The position numbers and the translations under genes are program-made. Below the pieces are notes generated by a model. It saw only the letters and a program-made list of their open reading frames with translations. It was not told where the DNA came from and made no database searches. Below are positions 2,686 through 53,408 of a stretch of DNA of 53,408 nucleotides, piece by piece. Source of the DNA: Bacteroidia bacterium (GTDB taxonomy: Bacteria; Bacteroidota; Bacteroidia; NS11-12g; UBA955); the NCBI GenBank assembly GCA_965655465.1, contig CBFHGY010000004.1, positions 996-54,403 of the forward strand. Direction: 5' to 3'. Every line of letters starts with the position of its first letter. Positions within the stretch are counted from its first letter, which is position 1.

Positions 2686-5600
2686 TTATTTCATTACACG
2701 GACGCCATCGTCGAATTTCACTACAAACGCATCTTTCATGCCTTTGTTTCTTAATCCTTTTTTATAGGTTTCTGCTGCTTCTTCCGTACTAAAGGCTCCT
2801 GTGCAATATTTATAATATTTACCCGAACGATACATAAAAATATCCTTCATGCCCATAGCCAGGAATTTATTCTCATTAACCGGTTTCAAGGTCATTTTAA
2901 ATTGAACGCGGTAAACCACTCCTGGCACCATTTTAGATTCGGTTGAATTTACATTGTTGGCGTTAACCGCAGCTTTGTTGTTTTTTGGAGCTGTTACAGC
3001 CACTGTTTCTGCGGTCCTTGAGGTGGTTGAAATCTCCGTTTGGGGATTATCTGCAATGTTCGGAACTAAATCCTTCGGATACTTTTTATAATTAGAAGGT
3101 GCTTCAAACTTGTCTGGAATGCCATCCTCGTCGGAATCTGTATCGATATAATCTGCTTTACCATCGTTATCGGTATCTTTAGTTCCTTCAACTTTATCTG
3201 GAATTCCATCATTGTCGGAGTCTTCATCACGGTAATTGGGAATGCCATCGCCATCGGTATCTTTAATTCCCTCTACGTCATCTGGAATTCCATCGTTATC
3301 GGAATCCTGATCTAAGAAATTCATTACCCCATCGTTATCTGAATCGCGGGTACCTTCTAATTTATCAGAAGTACCGTCACCGTCAGAATCCAAATCTAAG
3401 TAGTTCGGATTGCCATCATTATCGGCATCTCCTACCCCTTCAACATCATCGGGAATTCCATCATTGTCAGAGTCGGTATCCATGAAATTCTTTTTTCCGT
3501 CGCGATCAAAATCTGAGGAACCTTCCATACGGTCAGGAATTCCATCGTTGTCTGAATCTAAATCAATAAAGTTTGGCAAACCATCTTTATCGGTATCTAC
3601 ACGACCCTCCGTTGCATCAGGTATGCCATCATTGTCAGAATCCGAATCTAAGTAATCTGGGATTCCATCTCCGTCCGCATCTCCAATTTTCATATCCCCT
3701 TGCACTAAATCTTCTTGATTGATGACTCCTGAATTTGGATTTTTAGATCTTTTTCCGCCTGCATTATTATCTGCAATAGACCTGTTTTGGTTCGACATAT
3801 TATCTCCCGAGCCATTCCCATCGTTATTGCTTGCAAGTGCTGCACTATTGTCTGCAATAAACTCTGTACCATCGCAAGGCAACAATCCCGAAATGATATA
3901 TTCGGTACGGCGATTGAGTGCATGTTCTTGATCGCTACAATTTACCCCATCAAAACATCTGTTAATTAATTTTGATTCCCCAAAACCTTTATAGGTAATT
4001 GTTCTAGAAGAAACCCCTTTATTTATTAGATAGTCGTAAACAGATTTTGCACGTGCTGTAGAAAGTGCTTGATTAATTTCATTACTTCCTCTGGAATCGG
4101 TGTGTGAACCCAATTGCACCCGTAGACCCGGATTATCCTTAAGTACAATTGCAACACGATCCAATTCTTCTTTACTTTGGCGCGTTAATTGGTAGCTGTT
4201 TACTTCGTAATAAATCGGTTTTACTTCGAATAAAACTCCTAAATCTTCTCCTATTTTATACTTCTGCAAACCTAAACGCAGCTTTCTTTTGCCATCAGGA
4301 GTTACAAAATAATTGCTTACTGCGCCATATTTGTATCCGCAAGGATGTGCTGAGAGCTGTACTTTTGCATCCTTAGGAATGTCAGCATAGCTTGAATTTC
4401 CAGTTGAATCCAATTCGCCTTTAATAGCCAAATTATCATCTTCCAAATTATCCAATGCAAAGGTGGCACCTGGAATAATTTGCCCAGTTTCTTCATCAAA
4501 AATTTCTACAATTAATTCGTCCTGAGTAGGAGCTTTTTGCACAGAGTCTATATTAAGAATCTTAAAATAATAAAGGTCATCATTTATAGATTTAGCTTCA
4601 CGATTGGACGCAAAAACACCAGAACCCTCAAATACCACGGGTGCGATATCATCGCTATTGCTGTTTAGGGGTTTTCCCACGTTAAGAATCATATTTGAAT
4701 TTCTATCAATGGTATAAATGTCTAAACCACCGAAACCCAAATGTCCCTCAGAAGAAAAATAGAAATCGCCGGTTGCGCTAAAACGAGGAAAATTATCGCG
4801 TAACATCGTATTTACTTGGGGGCCCATATTTACTGGTTCTCCTACTTTTACGCCATCGGGTCCATTAGCAATGATAGGAGCTTCATATAAATCTGATTTC
4901 CCATAACCACCTGGCATATCAGAAACAAAAACCACCTTGCTGCCATCGGGTGCAATTACCAAATCAGCGATGTTAAATTTGTCGTTATTCAACTGAAATG
5001 GGATTTCTTTCCATTTCTTTCCAACTTTTTTAAGGGCAAAAACCTGCAATAATTGTTCTTTGTTTGCATTGGGCTTAGTGGCATTGCGGGTAATGTATAT
5101 CAATCCGTTTGCCTCGTCATAATGAGAAACATATTGGTGGCTTCTGGATCGGTTAAAATCCACTTCCTTGGCAGCGCCAAGAGTACTGTCGTTAAATTTG
5201 GCTTTAACGATAACATTATAAGGTGCATTGTGAGCTGCAGAACGGATTTTCCATAAGCCTGTTTCTTTTTTTGTTTGGTTAAAAAAGGCATTACCGTCAG
5301 GGGTGGTGATTAAACCATAATCTGCTTTGGAACTGCTTTGGGGGATTTTTTTAACGGAATAGTTATCCGAGAAATTAAACTCCGCCCAATAGTCTTCGCG
5401 TTTGTCTTTGTTTTCTTGATAAAAATCAGGTGTTAACTCATCAAAAAGGGGCACACCTGCATAGAAATTATCCTTTAAAAACAATATCAAGGAGTCCGAA
5501 AGTCCATACATTTCCATTTTCCTTGCGGATAGTGCAAAATATAAAAGATCTAGAGGGCTTACCTCGTTAGGGTATTTATCCGCGAGTTCGAAATAGGCAT

Positions 5601-6811: not shown

Positions 6812-9800
6812 TTAACGCTTAATGTAAATGTTACCTGTAATATCTTCACGGTTCTGGCCGTTTGGTTTAAATACATAGTAATACAAGCCTTCTGTTAAGT
6901 CACTTCCCAAGCCAGGCATACTCGACTTGTTACTTCCATCCCAGTTGTTTTTGTATCCGTTTCCAGAATCAAAAATCACTTGACCATTACGGTTAAAAAC
7001 AATCAACTGGGCTTTGGTATACACTTTCAATCCTTGAATAACCAAGAATTCATTTACGCCATCACCGTTAGGCGAGAATGCTTCTGGAATTCGGAATTGA
7101 GCATCCTTATAATCAGGGATTCCATTTCCATCAGAATCGCCTTGACCTTCATCTGCATCTAGAACATCGTCGTTATCTGAATCGGTATCTCTGAAATCAG
7201 CAATACCATCTCCATCGGTATCTAATGGATTCGTACCATCGGAACCTGCCTCGATTGCATCTAAAATGCCATCTCCATCAGAATCTAGATCGCGGAAATC
7301 TTCTGTTCCATCGTTATCAGTATCTACTGGGTTATTAGGATCTGCACCCGCTTCAATTGTATCTGGAATGCTATCGCCGTCTGAATCTAAATCTCGGAAA
7401 TCGTCTTTTCCGTCGCCATCTGTATCCACTGGATTGGTAGGATCTGTGCCTGCTTCTACTTCATCAGGAATGGTATCCCCATCTGAATCTAGATCGCGGA
7501 AATCCTCTTTACCGTCGCCATCCGTATCTACCGGATTGGCAGGATCAGTGCCAGCTTCATACGTATCTGAGATGCCATCATCATCAGAATCGGTATCCCT
7601 GAAATCTTCATTTCCATCATTATCTGTATCAACAGGATTTGTTGGATCTGAACCTGCTTCATACGTATCTGAAATTCCATCATCATCAGAATCGGTATCT
7701 CTGTAATCTGCCTTACCGTCATTGTCCGAATCGGTTGAACCCTCTACAGAATCGGGTATTTGATCGTTGTCTGAATCTGTTTCACGGAAATCCATATTGG
7801 TGTCCGCATCTGAATCTGCAGGTTTTAAATCTCCATTATCTCCAAAACCACTGGTTGCACCATCTGCCTCGTCCATGATGCCATCAGAATCCGCATCGGT
7901 TACATCGTCTAAGATTCCATCTGCATTGGCATCTGTATGACCTTGCAAACTCTCTAACAGGTCGAATAGACCATCTTCGTCGGAGTCAAGATCTAAGTAA
8001 TCTGGAATACCGTCGTTATCGGTATCAACAGCAGCTGTTAAAACGGCAGTTAAATCGTCGTTTATACCATCCCCGTCTGCATCGGTTGAACCGTTTTCAA
8101 TGACATCATTTATGCCGTCGTTATCCGAATCGAGATCACGGAAATCTGAAATTCCATCGCCATCCGAATCCAACAGAGCGTGTTTTCCGTTATTTTCTGT
8201 TTTATCGGCTAAACCGTCATTATCCGAATCTGTATCGAGATAATCTAAAGTGCCATCGGCATCAGTATCGAAGTTTTTCTCAATATAATCTGGAATACTA
8301 TCGTTATCTGAATCCAATAGATCAACATAAATAAACTGTGTTTTTGTGGTGATATTCCCTTGTTTGTCTCTCACACTCACGGTGATTATCGGCATTCCCA
8401 CATCACCTACATAGAAGGTATCCTGACTTACCCATGTTGAATCCACATTGCAGTTATCGGTTGCGGAAACAATAATATCATTTAGGTCTAAAACGGCTGT
8501 ACCTGAAGTGTCGATTCCAATATTTGTGCTTTTGGTTACTAATATTGGTTTAATGGTATCGATTACATTCACATTGAAAGTAGTTTCAGATACATTATCA
8601 AACTTGTCGGTTACTCGGAAAGTAATCTGTTTTACAGGGCCGTCTGAACAGATAAGGGTATCGCCTATTATTTCTCTCTTTTTGATGCCACAATTATCAT
8701 AAGTACCCCCGTCAATATCATCTGGGGTGATGGTATCACGACCGGTTGTACTGAGATAGAAATCTGGTAACGTTGGTTTTATTACAATTACGGGCTTAAC
8801 GGTATCCAAAACAGTAACGAGCGTGCTGTCCTTTGAAATATAGCCACTACCGTCTTTTCCGATTAAGAATACTTTAAACTCCTTAGTTACATCGTCGCAG
8901 TCAAAACTTGTTTTTCCATTAAGATAAACATCCAAAGGTATACAAGAGGTATTATCGGTACTTCCTAAGTCAATATCAGCAGTTCCAATCGTTTTTATTG
9001 GATTTACTGCAGGTCCTAAATAAACCGTATCGCGCACTTTTGCGATCATAATTGGGGCTAAGGTATCTCGTACATGGACTTCAATAGAATCTATTGTTTT
9101 ATTCTTTGAGGCATCCATAAACGTTATATATACCATGATACTGTCCGTAGAAATATCTGCACAGCTAAACGTTTGTTGGGAGTAAATTGTATCCGTTATT
9201 TCGCAATTATCAAATGCTGAAATCAAGTAATCCGAATCGTGTAATGTATAGGTACCATCTGGACCTAAATAGACAACAATCGAATCTTTAACCACCACAT
9301 CAAATGGTGCCAATGTATCCAACAAGGTTACAAGGGCCGTATCATGAGTAACATTACCGCTGGCGTCTTCTACAAAAACCAAAACTTCAAATACACCAGT
9401 ATCTCCGCATGTGAAGAAGGTATCAGACGTATAAATTTTTGTTATACCACAATTGTCATTGCCTGAATTATAAAGTAAAGCGGGTAAAATCGTATCGCGA
9501 CCATTAGAATCGAGGTATCGGGTAATGTTATTAACTATTGGGGTATCGGGGGCAAGGGTATCTAGTACTTGAATTTCAATGTTTTTGGATACGAAATTTC
9601 CTGAGGCATCCTTAACCGTTACTGTATAGGTTGCTGAACCTAAATCTGCGCAGGTAAATACGGTTTGCATGGTGGTATCTACAACTCCACAATTATCGTA
9701 GGTATATTTAACGATTTCTTTTTTGGGAAGTAATGCTTGTCCGCTTGCGTCTAAGTACAAAATAGTATCGGTTCGAATTTTTAAAGAATCAGGAGCTCGG

Positions 9801-11410
9801 CTATCGATAATATTAAAGGTAACTTCTTTGTAACGCTTGTTGCCGTTTTTATCTTCGGCATAAACCCCTATGGTTTTAGATCCTTTATCACCACAAGTAA
9901 AGAACAGGGTATCGGATGTCGCAGAAGCAAAATAGAAGGTATCTACTCCACAAGCGTCGTATGTAGAAAGTACCACGTCATCTATGATTAGGGTATCTAC
10001 TCCCAGAGAATCCAAAACTCGGGTTGGTACGGTTTTAAGTTTAAGATCGGGGGCGAAAGTATCGTGTACGGCTATTTTTGCCGTTACTGTTCTAGAGTTG
10101 CCACTAAAGTCTTCAATCCTATAGGCAACATCAATGGTGTCACCATCATGAGTACAAGAAAAAGCCACTTGACCTAGATAGGTTTTTGATGCATCAATTC
10201 CACATGCGTCAAACGATGCACTATCAACCATGGAGCTGGTTAATGTTCCTGAGCCGAAACTGTCTAAATACAAATCTACTACTGCATAAATCAAGTTCGC
10301 GGGAGCAGTTGTGTCTTTTACGGTTATAACAGGGGTTTCAGTGCTATCGGTATTCCCTGTAGGATCGATAGCGTGAAACTTTACCGAATGGGTATTTGCA
10401 ATATCCGCACAATTAAAGGTACTGTCACTGATTGCATACTTAATAGGTGCACAATCATCGGTTGTACCATCGTTCAAATCCGCTGCATGAACAGTAACCG
10501 TTCCTGTTGCGGAGTCTAAAAATACGGTAAGGTCTTTGGCTATGGCGATTGGTGGATCAACGTCGGTGTGTTGGATTGAAAAAACTACAGTATCCGGGCA
10601 GGCGTTAATATCCTGAACGTAGGCTGTATCATTTGAAATATCCAATAATCCGCTGTAATTGTTTGTTGAAGAATAATTGCCACCTATTGATTTAACCCAA
10701 TATTTTTTACTTCCTGTGCCACCTGTAGCAGAGAAAGTAACAGAACCCTGTCCATTGCAAATAGAGTTAGTAACTGATGCACTTAATATAACTTGATCTG
10801 GTTCTATAACCGTAACCGTTGATTTAAACTTACACCCATCCTTGTCTGTAACGGTAAAGATATGATCTCCTCCAACAGCATTGGCATAAATTGAATCAGC
10901 AAGCGTTGGGTTTGTATCCCAAGAAAAATTGTAGGGATAAGTAGTCCCTGTAACTAACATTACTATCAAACTTGTTAGTGAATCTTTACACTTATTATTC
11001 AAATTTGAAGCATTCCCATCATATATTACAGAAACCGCAGCCGGCTGGTTTATTATAATACCCGATAATGTTGTATCAATGGTTGGTATGGAAACGTGTT
11101 TTTTTACATTCACACTATAATTGTTAGCCGCCGCCACATTATTAAATGTGTGCGAGCCTGTCGTTGCTGATACAGTGGTAGTAAACGTTTGAATAATTTG
11201 GTTTGCCGAATCCAACTCAATGGTAAAGGTCGTGCTAACCGAATGGCTAAAACTCACCGAAATACTTCCCGTGGCGGTGCCATAACAATCAGCAGGAGTA
11301 GTTCCAGTAATCGACGCCGTTGGCTGGGCTATCGATTGTTGCGCTCCAAAGAGCAGAAGCAGCAGCAACAAACTGCTCGCTTTTTCACGTATTAATTTTC
11401 TCATATTCAT
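6812..11410 (-). CDS. Large T9SS type B (gliding-motility C-terminal domain) surface adhesin with SprB-like, HYR-like and TSP3 repeats
   Basis: Signal peptide, SprB-like modules (ADCYGTATGSI, VTDKDGC), ~85-aa Cys-containing DTxAP repeats and Asp-rich repeats. C-terminal IPEAFSPNGDGVNE...FNRNG...WDG...GLYYY...GNIYIKR. Confidence 0.9.
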   Translation of the reverse strand: MNMRKLIREKASSLLLLLLLFGAQQSIAQPTASITGTTPADCYGTATGSISVSFSHSVSTTFTIELDSANQIIQTFTTTVSATTGSHTFNNVAAANNYSVNVKKHVSIPTIDTTLSGIIINQPAAVSVIYDGNASNLNNKCKDSLTSLIVMLVTGTTYPYNFSWDTNPTLADSIYANAVGGDHIFTVTDKDGCKFKSTVTVIEPDQVILSASVTNSICNGQGSVTFSATGGTGSKKYWVKSIGGNYSSTNNYSGLLDISNDTAYVQDINACPDTVVFSIQHTDVDPPIAIAKDLTVFLDSATGTVTVHAADLNDGTTDDCAPIKYAISDSTFNCADIANTHSVKFHAIDPTGNTDSTETPVITVKDTTAPANLIYAVVDLYLDSFGSGTLTSSMVDSASFDACGIDASKTYLGQVAFSCTHDGDTIDVAYRIEDFSGNSRTVTAKIAVHDTFAPDLKLKTVPTRVLDSLGVDTLIIDDVVLSTYDACGVDTFYFASATSDTLFFTCGDKGSKTIGVYAEDKNGNKRYKEVTFNIIDSRAPDSLKIRTDTILYLDASGQALLPKKEIVKYTYDNCGVVDTTMQTVFTCADLGSATYTVTVKDASGNFVSKNIEIQVLDTLAPDTPIVNNITRYLDSNGRDTILPALLYNSGNDNCGITKIYTSDTFFTCGDTGVFEVLVFVEDASGNVTHDTALVTLLDTLAPFDVVVKDSIVVYLGPDGTYTLHDSDYLISAFDNCEITDTIYSQQTFSCADISTDSIMVYITFMDASKNKTIDSIEVHVRDTLAPIMIAKVRDTVYLGPAVNPIKTIGTADIDLGSTDNTSCIPLDVYLNGKTSFDCDDVTKEFKVFLIGKDGSGYISKDSTLVTVLDTVKPVIVIKPTLPDFYLSTTGRDTITPDDIDGGTYDNCGIKKREIIGDTLICSDGPVKQITFRVTDKFDNVSETTFNVNVIDTIKPILVTKSTNIGIDTSGTAVLDLNDIIVSATDNCNVDSTWVSQDTFYVGDVGMPIITVSVRDKQGNITTKTQFIYVDLLDSDNDSIPDYIEKNFDTDADGTLDYLDTDSDNDGLADKTENNGKHALLDSDGDGISDFRDLDSDNDGINDVIENGSTDADGDGINDDLTAVLTAAVDTDNDGIPDYLDLDSDEDGLFDLLESLQGHTDANADGILDDVTDADSDGIMDEADGATSGFGDNGDLKPADSDADTNMDFRETDSDNDQIPDSVEGSTDSDNDGKADYRDTDSDDDGISDTYEAGSDPTNPVDTDNDGNEDFRDTDSDDDGISDTYEAGTDPANPVDTDGDGKEDFRDLDSDGDTIPDEVEAGTDPTNPVDTDGDGKDDFRDLDSDGDSIPDTIEAGADPNNPVDTDNDGTEDFRDLDSDGDGILDAIEAGSDGTNPLDTDGDGIADFRDTDSDNDDVLDADEGQGDSDGNGIPDYKDAQFRIPEAFSPNGDGVNEFLVIQGLKVYTKAQLIVFNRNGQVIFDSGNGYKNNWDGSNKSSMPGLGSDLTEGLYYYVFKPNGQNREDITGNIYIKR
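7223..7732 (-). repeat. Five tandem 34-aa (102-bp) Asp-rich repeats within a longer TSP3-like tract (~7100-8320)
   Basis: DTDGDGKEDFRDLDSDGDTIPDEVEAGTDPTNPV-type units; the repeat is also visible at DNA level. Confidence 0.85.
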
Positions 11411-48734: not shown

Positions 48735-50465
48735 TTGTTAAAAAGAATTTTCCATATAATTTTTTTCTTATTTCCTTTATTTTCTAAAGGACAATCGGAC
48801 TATGCTCCTCACCTGCAAAGGGCGTGTTTGGATCGCGTAACCGGTGCTTTGAGCTTACTGATAAGTCCTGGAAAAGATAGCTGCAATTCTTTCATAAAGT
48901 ATCGACTTTGGGGACGTACCGACACATTCAGTTCATTTGAACTATTAGATGAATCTAATACTTTTAATCAATTATCTTGGAACACGTTGCTTCCAAATAA
49001 AAAAAGATGGCAGCTATATATCAGCACGTACTTTTCCTGTACTCCGAGCGACAGTTTCTTGAGTAATTTTTTGTATATAGATAATGTTCCTCCCTCTTAT
49101 GTAGAACCCGACAGTGTTAGCATTGACATGAGCAACCAAAACTTGATTGCCGGCTGGACCAATCCTCCTGAAACAGACATTATGGGATACAGCATGTTTC
49201 GAGTAGATGGTTTGGGCAACAACATTTTGATCGATGAACAGAATGTGTTGTTTTATTCTTTTTTGAACTCTGATTTTCCCAGCAAACAGAGCGGAAATCG
49301 ATTAGCGATTGCTGCGTATGATTCTTGTAGGAATGGTGGAGTGATTTCAAATTTCCATTCTCCTATATTATTACAAGTTAATACCAATGCTAATTACTTG
49401 TGCGACAAGGGAATACAACTAAACTGGACCTCTTATGTTGGTTGGGAAGTCAAGGAATATGAAATCTTCATTCGCGATGCAGATCGAGGTATTCTATTAC
49501 ACCAAAGCAAGGTAGCTTCAAATCTTAACGACTTTGCATTTACCTTGCCCTATTTGAATGTTACCCTAGACATTTATGTGCGAGCACACAAACTAGGAGC
49601 CGAAGTAAGTTCTACTTCCAATCGCGTAGATCTCTTTGTTTCTAATTTCCCAAAGCCATCAAAGTCAACATCTCTTTATTTTACTTCTGTTTCCCAAACC
49701 TCTAAGATCGACTTAGAGGGCTATGTAAACGTTGGAGATAGTTTCGATGTGTTTTACACTTCCAACCTAAGCCCCTGGTTATTAACCTATAGCGAATCTA
49801 AATCGTCTGGAATTGTTCAATTTGCACACAATTTAAATGACACGAGAACAGCTTCCGTTTCTTTTCTTTTGGTTCGGTATAATCAATGCGGCGAGCCTGC
49901 GGATAGCTCCTTAGTTATCAGGAGCATTCACCTAAGAGGCAACGAAAGAGAGTTAAATTGGAATAACAACTTACAATGGGAGGCACTCGGTGATAACCCT
50001 TTATATATCATAGAAAAAGAAGTGTCTGGCAACTGGGTTTCAATCGGGACCACTTCAGACAAAACGTTTACACTTCCTCCTTATGGCAATTATGAAGTTC
50101 GTGTAAAGGGCGTAACATCGCTATGGTCTACAGAAAGAAGGGGTTTCAGTTACAGCAATTCTATAACGGTAGACTTGGGTTTTGACAGCAGCTTGTTAGA
50201 CACGATATTAATTCCCAATGCCTTTACACCTGAGGGAATTAATCCTATTTTCAAAATAAGCAATCCTGCCATTTCATTAGGTGAATCACAGATGCAAATA
50301 TTCAACCGTTGGGGAGCTATTATTTACCAAGGAGATGCTTTAGTGGGTTGGGATGGAAAGGTTAATGGGAATCCGGTACCCGACAATATATATATCTACC
50401 GAATTAAGGCATTATATCGCAGAAAGCGCATTGAAAAAGCCGGAACGGTATTAATTTTGCGTTGA
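48735..50465 (+). CDS. T9SS type B (gliding-motility C-terminal domain) protein with FN3-like modules
   Basis: Signal peptide; C-terminal IPNAFTPEG.NP.F...IFNRWG...GWDG...YIY.I...GTVLILR. Confidence 0.85.
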   Translation: MLKRIFHIIFFLFPLFSKGQSDYAPHLQRACLDRVTGALSLLISPGKDSCNSFIKYRLWGRTDTFSSFELLDESNTFNQLSWNTLLPNKKRWQLYISTYFSCTPSDSFLSNFLYIDNVPPSYVEPDSVSIDMSNQNLIAGWTNPPETDIMGYSMFRVDGLGNNILIDEQNVLFYSFLNSDFPSKQSGNRLAIAAYDSCRNGGVISNFHSPILLQVNTNANYLCDKGIQLNWTSYVGWEVKEYEIFIRDADRGILLHQSKVASNLNDFAFTLPYLNVTLDIYVRAHKLGAEVSSTSNRVDLFVSNFPKPSKSTSLYFTSVSQTSKIDLEGYVNVGDSFDVFYTSNLSPWLLTYSESKSSGIVQFAHNLNDTRTASVSFLLVRYNQCGEPADSSLVIRSIHLRGNERELNWNNNLQWEALGDNPLYIIEKEVSGNWVSIGTTSDKTFTLPPYGNYEVRVKGVTSLWSTERRGFSYSNSITVDLGFDSSLLDTILIPNAFTPEGINPIFKISNPAISLGESQMQIFNRWGAIIYQGDALVGWDGKVNGNPVPDNIYIYRIKALYRRKRIEKAGTVLILR

Positions 50466-50905
50466 TGTCGGAGTCCATTTTGTTTTTAGGTCATTCGCGT
50501 TTCATTAATAGGAATGAACGCTCTAAAATACGCAAAACGTTGTCTTATTTGGCTGATAACCATACGTTTATCATTGATTCTTTGACATATATTCACCAAA
50601 CAGATCTGGAGCTCTTAGAAGTAAATATAACTCACTTAAATCACGACACCTACACAGACATCATCACCTTTGATTTGTCTGACAATGAGGGAGTTATAGA
50701 TGGTGAAATTTATATTTCGGTAGACAGGGTTAAAGAAAACGCTCTATTGTTTGGTGTAGATTTTTGGACTGAGTATATCCGAGTTGTGTCCCATGGTTTA
50801 TTCCATTTAATGGGTTACGGAGACAAAACACCCGAGGAACAGGCGATTATGAGAAAACGGGAAGAAGAGGCCATTGCCTACTGGTCTGGTCTACGTTCCA
50901 CGTGA
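50462..50905 (+). CDS. ybeY: rRNA maturation RNase YbeY
   Basis: HDTYTDIITF, GEIYIS, HGLFHLMGYGD, MRKRE. Confidence 0.95.
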   Translation: MMSESILFLGHSRFINRNERSKIRKTLSYLADNHTFIIDSLTYIHQTDLELLEVNITHLNHDTYTDIITFDLSDNEGVIDGEIYISVDRVKENALLFGVDFWTEYIRVVSHGLFHLMGYGDKTPEEQAIMRKREEEAIAYWSGLRST

Positions 50906-50909
50906 AACC
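50894..50909. other. parS centromere-like site 1 (overlaps the ybeY stop codon)
   Basis: cGTTCCACGTGAAACc matches the parS core GTTNCACGTGAAAC. Confidence 0.8.
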
Positions 50910-51019
50910 AAACTTTATTTAACCTTGAAATTAATCCTGTCCTATTGCGGATCGGGATGAATAGTGAGTATTCAAGGGGAAGGAAACCCGGTATAGCGGC
51001 TATTATAGCCTGGGTATAC

Positions 51020-51181
51020 ATACATTTTTGCTACGCAAAATCACGGTTATCGAGTGGCTGACGCAGGAAGCCGTATCGAGATGCGATGTCCGTGATTCGA
51101 CGAGAAACGAGTCGAATTGTATCGAGACCGGGTATGAGGCTGTTGTAGCTTCCATCTCGATACAATTTTGCTCCGCAAAAT
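51020..51181 (+). repeat. Left cluster of structured REP-like palindromic repeats (modules A-B-C-A)
   Basis: TTTTGCTACGCAAAATCAC, TCGAGTGGCTGACGCAGGAAGCCGTATCGAGA, GTGATTCGACGAGAAACGAGTCGAATTGTATCGAGA and CATCTCGATACAATTTTGCTCCGCAAAAT; the same modules recur in the right cluster. Confidence 0.9.
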
Positions 51182-51242
51182 TGATTACAATGTCTATCCG
51201 AAAAAGTGCGGTAAAATTTCTCAACAAGACGCTAGCAAAGGA

Positions 51243-51527
51243 TTAGCTAAACTGTTTTCTTGAAAAACCAGGTAAACCCTCATTAAAACCTTCAATTAAG
51301 GCTATCTACTTTATATGAGACCAGGATTGTATTTGCTTCTCTCTTTCGAAGGCAACATCAATTCTATCAAACACCTCGAAATAAACCAAGGTAACTGGTC
51401 GTCTCTTCTTAGTATAGTTAGCACCGTTTCCTGTTTGATGTTGGTTTATTCTCCTTTTTAAGTTTTTAGTACTTCCTGTATAAAAAGTACCATCATTACA
51501 TAATAAAATATACATATACGCCTCCAT
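51243..51527 (-). pseudogene. Small GIY-YIG nuclease (UPF0213/YhbQ-like) with a premature TAG at 51306-51308
   Basis: YMYILLCNDGTFYTGST.NL.RR..QH..G.GANYTKKRRPV.LVYFE...AFEREKQIQSWSHIK*IALIEG. The family C-terminal KKxALI continues in frame past the TAG to TAA at 51243. Confidence 0.8.
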
Positions 51528-51549
51528 ATTACAAAGGTCTTATATTTTA

Positions 51550-51565
51550 AGTTCCACGTGGAACC
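51550..51565. other. parS site 2 (perfect 14-bp palindrome, upstream of the GIY-YIG gene)
   Basis: aGTTCCACGTGGAACc. Confidence 0.85.
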
Positions 51566-51698
51566 CGAAGATTTGCAAATATTACAAAGAATCACAATTC
51601 TGTGCAGCATAGAGAATATGGCATTTTCGCAACAATAAGTTATTGCGCAACCTGAAGCTAAGCAAGCAATTAACCGTTGTAAGTATTATGTGCGTTTC

Positions 51699-52310
51699 CA
51701 TCTCGATACAATTTTGCTCCGCAAAATCACGGTTATGGAGTGGCCAACCCAGGAAGCCGTATAGAGATGCGATGTCCGTGCTTTCCAGAATATTACTGGT
51801 GTGTTAACGGAGGTCGCATCTCGATACAATTTTGCTAGCAAAATCACGGTTATCGAGTGGCTGAAGCAGGAAGCCGTATCGAGATGCGATGCACAAACTT
51901 TTCAGAATATTACTGGTGTGTACACGGAGGTCGCATCTCGATACGATTTTGCTACGCAAAATCACGGTTATCGAGTGGCTGACGCAGGAAGCCATATCGA
52001 GATGCGATGTCCGTACTTTCCAGAATATTACTAGTGTGTTCACGGAGGTCGAGTGATTCGACGAGAAACGAGTCGAATTGTATCGAGACCGAGTGTGAGG
52101 CTATTGTAGCTTCCATCTCGATACGATTTTGCTACGCAAAATCATGGTTATCGAGTGGCTGACGCAGGAAGCCGCATAGAGATGCGATGTACGAACAAAA
52201 CAGAATATTACTGGTGTGTTCACGGATGTCGCATCTCGATACAAATTTGCTCAGCAAAATCACGATTATCGAGTGGCTCATGTAGGAACGAGTATCAAGA
52301 TGCGATGTCC
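51699..52310 (+). repeat. Tandem array of five ~118-bp structured REP-like units; a ~62-bp module C insertion precedes the fourth
   Basis: CATCTCGATAC starts at 51699, 51817, 51934, 52114 and 52232 (periods 118, 117, 180, 118). The linker CAGAATATTACT(G/A)GTGTGT is conserved. Confidence 0.92.
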
Positions 52311-52454
52311 AAGATTTACCTCAACCCTCATTAAATTGCATGGAGAGATGCAAACATTTATGTATGCCTAATTCCACAACTCCGTTCTCTACAAAAACGC
52401 TACCTTATACGCCGTTGGTGGATTCAATATTCAAAAGACCCCTCGAATTAATAT

Positions 52455-52462
52455 TATATTTG
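52455..52462 (+). promoter_or_regulatory. -7 promoter element of mnmG
   Basis: TATATTTG, 24 nt before ATG 52487. Confidence 0.65.
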
Positions 52463-52470
52463 TATCATAA

Positions 52471-52486
52471 AGTTCCACGTGAAACC
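52471..52486. other. parS site 3 (directly before the mnmG start codon)
   Basis: aGTTCCACGTGAAACc followed by ATG. Confidence 0.8.
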
Positions 52487-53408
52487 ATGAATAAATATGA
52501 TGTAATAGTTGTAGGCGCCGGACATGCCGGTTGTGAAGCAGCTCATGCCGCCGCAACTATGGGAAAAAATGTACTCCTCGTTACCATGAATATGGAAACC
52601 ATCGCTAAAATGAGTTGTAACCCTGCAATGGGTGGAGTCGCTAAGGGACAAATAATCAGGGAGATAGACGCACTTGGAGGTATGTCTGGAATAATCACTG
52701 ATAAGACCATGATCCAATTCAGAATGCTAAATCAATCCAAGGGATTTGCTATGTGGAGTCCAAGAGCACAATCCGATAGATGGCGATTCTCTGAAGAATG
52801 GCGACTCACTTTAGAACTAAATAAAAATATCGATTTTTTTCAGGACTCTGTGAACGAATTAATCGTAGAGGGTGAACATGTGACAGGAGTAATATGTGGT
52901 ATGGGAAATAAATTCTATTCCAAAACAGTCGTGGTTACCGCAGGTACGTTCTTAAACGGACTCATACATATAGGAAGAAAAAACTTCGGCGGAGGACGTA
53001 TGGCTGAAAAAGCATCATTTGGAATAACCGCCCAATTAGAATCTCTTGGATTCACCAGTGGACGTATGAAAACGGGTACCCCTCCCAGAATAGATGGTCG
53101 CACCTTAAATTACGATAAAATGGAGGAACAAAAGGGAGACACCATTCCTTATACCTTCTCATTTTCCCAAACAACCCAACCACTCACCAATCAAAGGAGT
53201 TGTTACATCACCTATACCAACGAAGAAGTTCACAATCTTCTTAGAGAAGGTTTTGAAGATTCTCCTATGTATAATGGTTCTATTAAAAGCCTCGGACCCA
53301 GATATTGTCCTAGTATTGAAGATAAAATAAATCGTTTTGCTGAGAGAGACCGACATCAAATCTTCGTAGAACCCGAAGGTTGGAATACCGTTGAAGTATA
53401 TGTAAACG
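52487..53408 (+). CDS. mnmG: tRNA uridine-5-carboxymethylaminomethyl(34) synthesis enzyme MnmG (GidA), truncated by the window end
   Basis: Hand translation gives MNKYDVIVVGAGHAGCEAA...MSCNPAMGGVAKGQIIREIDALGG...GRMKTGTPPR...GPRYCPSIEDK...HQIFVEPEG. Confidence 0.97.
   Translation, partial: MNKYDVIVVGAGHAGCEAAHAAATMGKNVLLVTMNMETIAKMSCNPAMGGVAKGQIIREIDALGGMSGIITDKTMIQFRMLNQSKGFAMWSPRAQSDRWRFSEEWRLTLELNKNIDFFQDSVNELIVEGEHVTGVICGMGNKFYSKTVVVTAGTFLNGLIHIGRKNFGGGRMAEKASFGITAQLESLGFTSGRMKTGTPPRIDGRTLNYDKMEEQKGDTIPYTFSFSQTTQPLTNQRSCYITYTNEEVHNLLREGFEDSPMYNGSIKSLGPRYCPSIEDKINRFAERDRHQIFVEPEGWNTVEVYVN

Follow-up and report, generated by a model that had tools for sequence, protein, structure and literature searches.

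A probable Ssn-like GIY-YIG nuclease gene within arrays of hairpin repeats in a Bacteroidia bacterium

We analyzed a stretch of 53,408 nucleotides (nt) from a Bacteroidia bacterium (NCBI GenBank assembly GCA_965655465.1, contig CBFHGY010000004.1, positions 996 to 54,403 of the forward strand), hereafter called the window. At the end of the window, the 1.58-kb spacer between the genes ybeY and mnmG carries a small GIY-YIG nuclease gene on its minus strand, with arrays of palindromic repeats on both sides of it. This locus is likely to be an Ssn-like module, in which a single-domain GIY-YIG nuclease gene is surrounded by arrays of the hairpin repeats cognate to it. The Ssn nucleases and their SRM repeats were described in 2025 (PMC11893778; our statements on this work refer to those parts of its text and supplementary data that were available to us). 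A preliminary description of the window had taken the combination of nuclease and repeats for a poorly described system, a view that is superseded by the 2025 work.

The nuclease gene and its repeat arrays

The gene and the repeats around it occupy the following positions of the window.

51306-51527, minus strand: predicted Ssn-like single-domain GIY-YIG nuclease, an open reading frame of 73 residues with an in-frame TAG (51306-51308) as codon 74 (open reading frame list and Pfam)
51243-51305, minus strand: remnant of the C-terminal 20 codons and the original TAA stop (51243-51245), cut off by the TAG (read-through translation)
51528-51694, minus strand: non-repeat region upstream of the nuclease gene, with a palindrome at 51551-51564 and homology to other loci as far as 51554
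50998-51181, plus strand: left array, consisting of a C-tail-like hairpin, A1 (about 51013-51086, 5' arm decayed), C1 (51092-51152), and A2 (51150-51181, truncated)
51695-52311, plus strand: right array, consisting of A3 (51696-51772), B, A4 (51814-51889), B, A5 (51931-52007), B, C2 (52053-52113), A6 (52111-52187), B, and A7 (52229-52305)
51150-51181, plus strand: left copy of a 32-nt direct repeat around the gene cassette, the start of an A module that is broken exactly after its first small hairpin
51695-51727, plus strand: right copy of the 32-nt direct repeat, where the A module runs on intact

The nuclease open reading frame was matched by PF01541 (GIY-YIG) over residues 3-70 of 73 (E value of 3.4e-19), and beyond GIY-YIG the Pfam search returned only T5orf172 at 18 bits, which is under the cut-off of 20. 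Residues Y6, Y16, R26, H30, and E63 were invariant in a 32-sequence alignment, and the catalytic core was intact up to E63 despite the TAG. When the TAG was read through as X, the translation extended to 94 residues and ended at the TAA at 51243-51245. Residues after the TAG agreed with the family consensus K-x-A-L-I-x-G in the alignment, and blastn alignments with homologous loci continued beyond the TAG, to 51232-51262. Because the codons after the TAG fit the consensus and nucleotide homology crosses them, the ancestral gene appears to have encoded about 94 residues, with the TAG as a late nonsense change. The stand-alone GIY-YIG gene of ~94 residues in the preliminary description was therefore correct as to the domain, while its length holds only for the read-through form and the present frame has 73 residues.

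The lengths of the 119 other listed homologues were mostly 88-125 residues, and four of them (P0003, P0019, P0057, and P0065) had only 74-76 residues, so that a loss of activity in the window copy is not certain. These four proteins ended within three residues of the position of the TAG in the window, which suggests either recurrent truncation or a dispensable last helix. In the homologues P0005, P0077, and P0103, we observed long, odd C-terminal tails resembling translated hairpin repeats.

The arrays are made up of three modules, A, B, and C, all of them in direct orientation, and repeats lie on both sides of the nuclease gene, as had been described before. Seven A modules were counted, of which A3-A7 are full, A1 has a decayed 5' arm, and A2 ends at 51181; C occurred twice. 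For B, four full modules (4 matches against 0.00 expected) and two short stubs, after A1 and A7, were found. The earlier counts of seven A and two C modules thus stand, and the six B modules reported with them come down to the four full copies plus the stubs. Each A module is internally palindromic with perfect 14-nt arms.

Repeat finding within the window returned a 95-nt stretch with most of A six times, a 90-nt family with C twice, and many arm pairs, and TRF reported a period of 118 nt at 51699-52051 (3.0 copies, 88% matches, score of 573). A sensitive blastn search with one repeat unit against the whole window yielded only two 12-nt chance matches outside 51020-52307. The repeat pattern put forward in the preliminary description had three matches in the window against 0.00 expected. 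The core 9-mer GTATCGAGA had 10 copies in 51073-52242 and one elsewhere in the window, where 0.14 were expected. A degenerate 21-mer derived from the repeat (three degenerate positions) had no match in a genome contig collection without the source genome.

The common unit in the window opens with CGTGA or CGAGTG as a short 5' motif, continues with a small hairpin, and closes with GTATCGAGA. In reverse complement, the 5' half of A aligned with the 3' half of A and also with C. Judged from these alignments, module A is an inverted doublet of two units that stand head to head, with their 3' ends giving the 14-nt arms, and it resembles a long palindrome for this reason; module C is a single unit, and module B may be a degenerate one. 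The window holds about 15 units, eight on the plus strand and seven on the minus strand. In its general form, the hairpin has an outer stem closed by YGAG on the 5' side and CGAR on the 3' side, with Y pairing with R, which leaves possible tandem G-A/A-G pairs in the loop. Inside, some hairpins have a 5-6-nt loop, and others, including those of the window, a second hairpin between GTG(A) and GTAT.

A 513-nt gene cassette (51182-51694) splits an A module and lies between the two copies of the 32-nt direct repeat, both of which carry one variant loop base that is absent from the other A copies. In A3, A6, and A7, the 3' arms differed from their partner arms without compensation, so the repeat array is drifting. 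The window copy as a whole is probably decaying, because of the premature TAG after residue 73 and the uncompensated mismatches in several hairpin arms.

Hairpin repeats beside homologous nuclease genes

A protein-alignment search of genome contigs gave over 600 stretches, and the analysis used the 80 best loci (60-71% identity). They belonged mostly to Bacteroidota, and also to Leptospira, Fibrobacter, Akkermansia, Scalindua, Calditrichia, Cloacimonadota, Ignavibacteriales, Anaerolineales, and Dojkabacteria. The closest nuclease homologues among the 80 loci were on Crocinitomicaceae and Fluviicola contigs, at 71% identity. In blastn comparisons of the A, B, and C modules with the flanks of the 80 loci, no alignment was found, and the gene alone aligned with the window.

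Self-comparison of the 80 loci showed that the share of bases in within-locus repeats was ~4% in the background and reached 40% at -200 to -100 and 45% at +300 to +400 from the gene start. A flank repeat was present in 63 of the 80 loci, and a direct repeat common to the upstream and downstream flanks was present in 40. We rejected tRNA arrays as the source of the flanking repeats, as the 20 loci examined with ARAGORN had just two tRNAs, both unrelated, and the window had none. The nuclease gene was at most 700 nt from a contig end in 14 of the 80 loci (L005, L009, L010, L017, L022, L024, L041, L042, L046, L059, L063, L064, L070, and L075), which is expected if flanking repeats break short-read assemblies. 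In two loci the nuclease gene was present twice in tandem, the copies being separated by 1.2-2.6 kb with hairpin arrays, at the following locus positions.

L014: nuclease copies at 8810-9028 and 10001-10219
L030: nuclease copies at 7368-7586 and 10001-10219

The flank repeats of the Aequorivita, Crocinitomicaceae, Bacteroidales, and Calditrichia loci had the same loop letters as the window units. Covariation was analyzed in a set of 17 sequences that were picked solely by these loop letters. In the two helices, 84% of cells paired, compared with 57% after shuffling and 26-48% in slid controls, and both-sided changes occurred in 14 of 15 pairs. The Y:R pair closing the outer stem was C:G in 12 sequences, U:A in five, and unpaired in none. 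A covariance model built from the same 17 sequences (R1) gave 71 hits at E values up to 1. Seven of these hits were in the window, all at 51043-52307, and the other 64 were in 11 of the 80 loci, with 56 of the 64 within 1 kb of the gene. The hits in the window were as follows.

51043-51088: R1 hit in the left array, 41.8 bits
51846-51891, plus strand: R1 hit
51964-52009, plus strand: R1 hit
52042-52095, plus strand: R1 hit
52144-52189, plus strand: R1 hit
52262-52307, plus strand: R1 hit
51703-51730, minus strand: partial R1 hit

Apart from the two 12-nt chance matches, both the blastn and the R1 matches were confined to the array region, in agreement with the earlier statement that the modules are absent elsewhere in the window.

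Many other loci carried a short form of the hairpin, in which a 5-6-nt loop replaces the inner hairpin. A generalised pattern that covers both forms (a 7-nt stem, YGAG, 2-62 nt, CGAR with Y pairing with R, and the stem) was distributed over the 80 loci as follows.

Within 0.8-0.9 kb of the gene: 208 hits in 59 of the 80 loci, 1.63 per kb, against 3 hits in shuffled sequence
Rest of the loci: 51 hits, 0.05 per kb, against 14.6 hits in shuffled sequence

Among the 51 distant hits, eight adjoined a second gene copy, and some were nested. Away from the gene, the density of the pattern was 0.314 per kb in other intergenic DNA and 0.017 per kb in open reading frames. With 1.63 per kb at the gene compared to 0.314 per kb in other intergenic DNA, the hairpins are dispersed in spacers, yet about five times denser at the nuclease gene. 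An enrichment of hairpins next to such GIY-YIG genes, for which the preliminary description had proposed a test, was thus observed. Near the gene, 119 units were on the strand of the gene and 89 on the opposite strand.

Relation to the published Ssn/SRM system

SsnA of Neisseria meningitidis is a single-domain GIY-YIG protein of 94 residues that binds and cuts the NTS hairpin only as single-stranded DNA (ssDNA) and on one strand only (Chenal 2025, PMC11893778). According to the same paper, Ssn proteins did not bind or cut their flanking hairpins as double-stranded DNA (dsDNA) or RNA, and cutting was lost in the SsnA mutants Y6A, Y17A, and E64A (residue numbers from the primer names in Supplementary Data 8). 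Homologues from three further species cut their own flanking repeats, and the tested members of the family were the first site-specific nucleases found to cut only ssDNA. SRM repeats were nearby in 71% of homologues and on both sides in 42%. The SsnA-NTS pair modulates natural transformation in Neisseria, and the Discussion of the paper likens the NTS-ssnA-NTS layout to insertion sequences and to RAYT, repetitive extragenic palindromic (REP), and BIME systems (PMC11893778).

Like Ssn proteins (cd10448), the window protein is a single-domain GIY-YIG protein of ~94 residues, in its read-through form, with the catalytic residues Tyr, Tyr, and Glu; its Y6, Y16, and E63 are the counterparts of Y6, Y17, and E64 of SsnA. 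As in the Ssn/SRM system, hairpin repeats lie on both sides of the gene and in both orientations, and copies are also dispersed intergenically. The frame of the inner hairpin in the window (5' CGTG-A, 3' T) resembles that of NTS (5' CGTC-A, 3' T-C) when compared by eye with the oligonucleotides in Supplementary Data 8 (PMC11893778). What sets the window unit apart from the published repeats is an additional outer stem, with YGAG/CGAR closing it; the units of its clade often lack the inner hairpin. The window protein was ~37% identical to an SRM-flanked Shinella protein. In the protein tree, the window clade grouped with the canonical Ssn clade at 90/83 support, not within it, and the gene-hairpin layout is family-wide in this sister clade, which is centred on Bacteroidota.

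The 29 genomes behind the SRM definition include no Bacteroidota, and the strings 'bacteroid' and 'flavobacter' do not occur in the main text of the paper (PMC11893778). Ten species that recur among the 80 loci were looked up in its Supplementary Data 4, where SRM occurred at 0.43 to 2.1 times the shuffled mean, indicating no enrichment. An SsnA homologue by tblastn was recorded for five of these ten species, and a cd10448 score above 100 for four. Our literature searches found nothing that pairs GIY-YIG with repetitive extragenic palindromic, only restriction-enzyme papers for GIY-YIG with REPIN, the 2025 paper and a review for SsnA as a GIY-YIG protein, and nothing relevant on REP elements in Bacteroidetes or on the hairpin motif strings. 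The locus lies at the edge of the published Ssn family, and its hairpin type escapes the published search pattern.

Several observations weigh against an Ssn-like module. Neither the window nor any flank of the 80 loci contained a match to the published SRM pattern; as a control, the same script found the pattern beside the Shinella (4) and Sphingobium (2) plasmid homologues, in both orientations. A profile of the SRM-flanked (Rhizobiales-type) proteins gave the window protein 47 bits, compared with 140 bits from the profile of its own clade, and the window-clade profile scored UPF0213 proteins at 46-84 bits and canonical Ssn proteins at 51-68 bits. A long branch (support of 100/100) set the canonical clade apart, and support for the window clade was only 68/78. 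The generalised hairpin pattern had no hit in 21 of the 80 loci. Stem mismatches were G-T in 60 cases and A-C in 58, and because of these equal counts there was no sign of a folding strand. The long or short type of the hairpin was not clustered on the protein tree (eight changes, compared with 8.4 after shuffling), in a comparison based on 73 columns, with 60 of 78 forks unresolved and with 26 of 81 rows excluded as having no typed hairpin. The co-variation of nuclease and repeat trees proposed in the preliminary description was accordingly not seen on this poorly resolved tree. In addition, the nuclease gene in the window is truncated, and its clade is known from sequence.

By analogy with the tested relatives, the hairpin would fold when DNA becomes single-stranded, as in replication, in repair, or in incoming DNA. 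The nuclease would then bind the folded hairpin in a strand-specific manner and cut beside it. That the nuclease recognises or nicks the hairpins, as suggested earlier, is in line with the binding and ssDNA cutting measured at the bench for related proteins (PMC11893778), but the window copy has a premature stop. The further suggestion that the nuclease spreads the hairpins gained no support from our analysis or from the available parts of PMC11893778. The pair of nuclease and repeats may act as a selfish cassette, may have been domesticated to control incoming or recombining DNA, or may combine the two.

The published work already covers very small GIY-YIG nucleases with specificity for hairpin repeats around their own genes (PMC11893778). 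What is new is the same layout in a sister clade (Bacteroidota, and also Leptospira, Fibrobacter, Calditrichia, and others) with a distinct, well-defined hairpin. These loci provide concrete candidate pairs of enzyme and substrate in which new ssDNA specificities can be sought, and the layout is a likely explanation for a hairpin repeat that breaks assemblies and enters protein tails in these phyla. For the window itself the meaning is modest, as its ybeY-mnmG spacer carries a probably decaying copy and not a new kind of element.

We also put forward, as a tentative proposal that may well fail, that the Bacteroidota-centred clade and its YGAG/CGAR hairpins form a second major, undescribed specificity class of Ssn-like ssDNA nucleases. 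Its recognised element would be a hairpin in two tiers with an invariant internal loop, reducible to a 5-6-nt loop. If this proposal were true, the published counts of nuclease-repeat pairs would be too low, because the SRM pattern misses the YGAG/CGAR hairpin wholly. The class would then provide a new set of site-specific ssDNA cutters, and it could explain a hairpin that is common in Bacteroidota spacers as well as the odd C-terminal tails of annotated proteins.

Alternative explanations, related systems, and neighbouring features

The nuclease gene could instead be a mobile, homing-endonuclease-like selfish cassette that cuts hairpins and is copied in by repair, in which case the repeats would be landing sites and not products of the nuclease. 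Consistent with such a cassette, the 513-nt stretch with the gene splits an A module, the start of this module stands at either end of that stretch as a 32-nt direct repeat, the gene family is patchy across phyla, 14 of the 80 genes are within 700 nt of a contig end, and two loci have tandem gene copies. However, dsDNA was not a substrate for the tested relatives, which cut ssDNA alone (PMC11893778) and in this differ from homing endonucleases, and the protein has no DNA-binding extension in Pfam. We regard a mobile cassette as a rather unlikely explanation, and one that overlaps with an Ssn-like module and does not exclude it. A coincidence, in which a small orphan gene and a REP- or MITE-like family unrelated to it both built up in permissive spacers without any functional connection, would fit the hairpins in other intergenic regions (0.314 per kb) and a hairpin type that does not track the protein tree. 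Against it stand the ~5-fold higher density at the gene than in other intergenic DNA, the occurrence of the motif in 59 of the 80 loci and in many phyla, the repeat common to both flanks in 40 of the 80 loci, and the direct biochemical link in the sister clade (PMC11893778), which together make a mere coincidence very improbable.

The repeats could also be a structured RNA (for example a ribozyme, a regulatory leader, or a tandem small RNA) whose hairpins function in the transcript, with the nuclease gene as a passenger or as an RNA-binding partner; strong covariation in two helices and invariant loop nucleotides would agree with this explanation. Tandem G-A pairs, which are possible in the YGAG/CGAR loop, are of the kind found in RNA motifs. 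Yet no Rfam match was found at E values up to 1 in 50400-53000, and apart from one tRNA there was none at the gathering score in 14 loci. As units are on both strands within one array, G-T and A-C mismatches are about equally frequent (60 and 58), and fold z-scores are only modest (-2.4 and -3.6), an RNA role of the repeats is unlikely. A tested relative also showed no RNA binding (PMC11893778), and as an account of the locus a structured RNA has very little to recommend it.

The Ssn-like module resembles RAYT/REP/REPIN/BIME systems in having a nuclease gene flanked by hairpin repeats that are thought to be its targets. It further resembles REPINs and BIMEs in that module A is an inverted doublet, the units stand in arrays, and copies are dispersed in intergenic DNA. 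Unlike RAYT proteins (HUH/Y1, related to IS200/IS605), the window enzyme belongs to GIY-YIG and has no HUH domain in Pfam, the repeat sequences are unrelated, and our analysis gave no sign of transposition. The RAYT/REPIN-like character claimed in the preliminary description therefore applies to the layout, since inverted doublets flank the gene and the same comparison is drawn in PMC11893778, but not to the protein, which is without an HUH domain.

UPF0213 proteins (E. coli YhbQ and B. subtilis YazA) are of the same size and fold class as the window protein, and the closest solved structures by sequence were PDB 1ywl (E value of 2.9e-13) and 1zg2 (E value of 4.2e-12). Membership in UPF0213 was rejected, as five UPF0213 sequences formed their own clade (100/99) apart from the window clade. 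In four of four Bacillota loci (L087-L090; yazA type), the UPF0213 gene was located between the tRNA(Val) m6A37 methyltransferase gene and rsmI, with 19 nt or an overlap upstream and 4 nt or an overlap to rsmI. This fixed, housekeeping context, which judged from the spacing has no room for repeat arrays, is unlike that of the window gene. GIY-YIG homing endonucleases of the I-TevI type have the catalytic domain in common with the window protein, and possibly also a selfish, patchily distributed gene. Membership in this group was also rejected, since the TIGR01453 score of 19.6 bits falls short of the cut-off (56.05) and the window protein has a single domain and no DNA-binding domain. Unlike the I-TevI type, the window gene is located outside introns and phage.

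Both neighbours of the locus lie on the plus strand.

50462-50905, plus strand: ybeY, left neighbour, outside the system (Pfam YbeY, E value of 1.4e-20; TIGR00043, 75.5 bits)
52487-53407, plus strand: mnmG/gidA, right neighbour, which runs off the window (Pfam GIDA, E value of 7e-114)

The gene 5' of ybeY (48735-50465) encodes a 576-residue protein that carries a type IX secretion sorting domain (CHU_C), by which the window can be assigned to Bacteroidota. A 15-nt near-palindromic motif, GTTCCACGTGRAACC, was found in three copies, which lie across the ybeY stop (50895-50909), 22 nt 5' of the nuclease ATG (51551-51565), and ending 1 nt ahead of the mnmG ATG (52472-52486). The 14-nt core of this motif, for which 0.03 copies were expected by chance, was absent from the rest of the window and from the 80 loci. 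The copies could represent a duplication from the insertion of a block between ybeY and mnmG, or a shared operator. Elsewhere in the window, tandem repeats at 7175-7717 (102/204-nt period) and 3161-3334 (84 nt) had 72-75% matches and 0-1% indels, and they are probably repeated domains within large coding regions.

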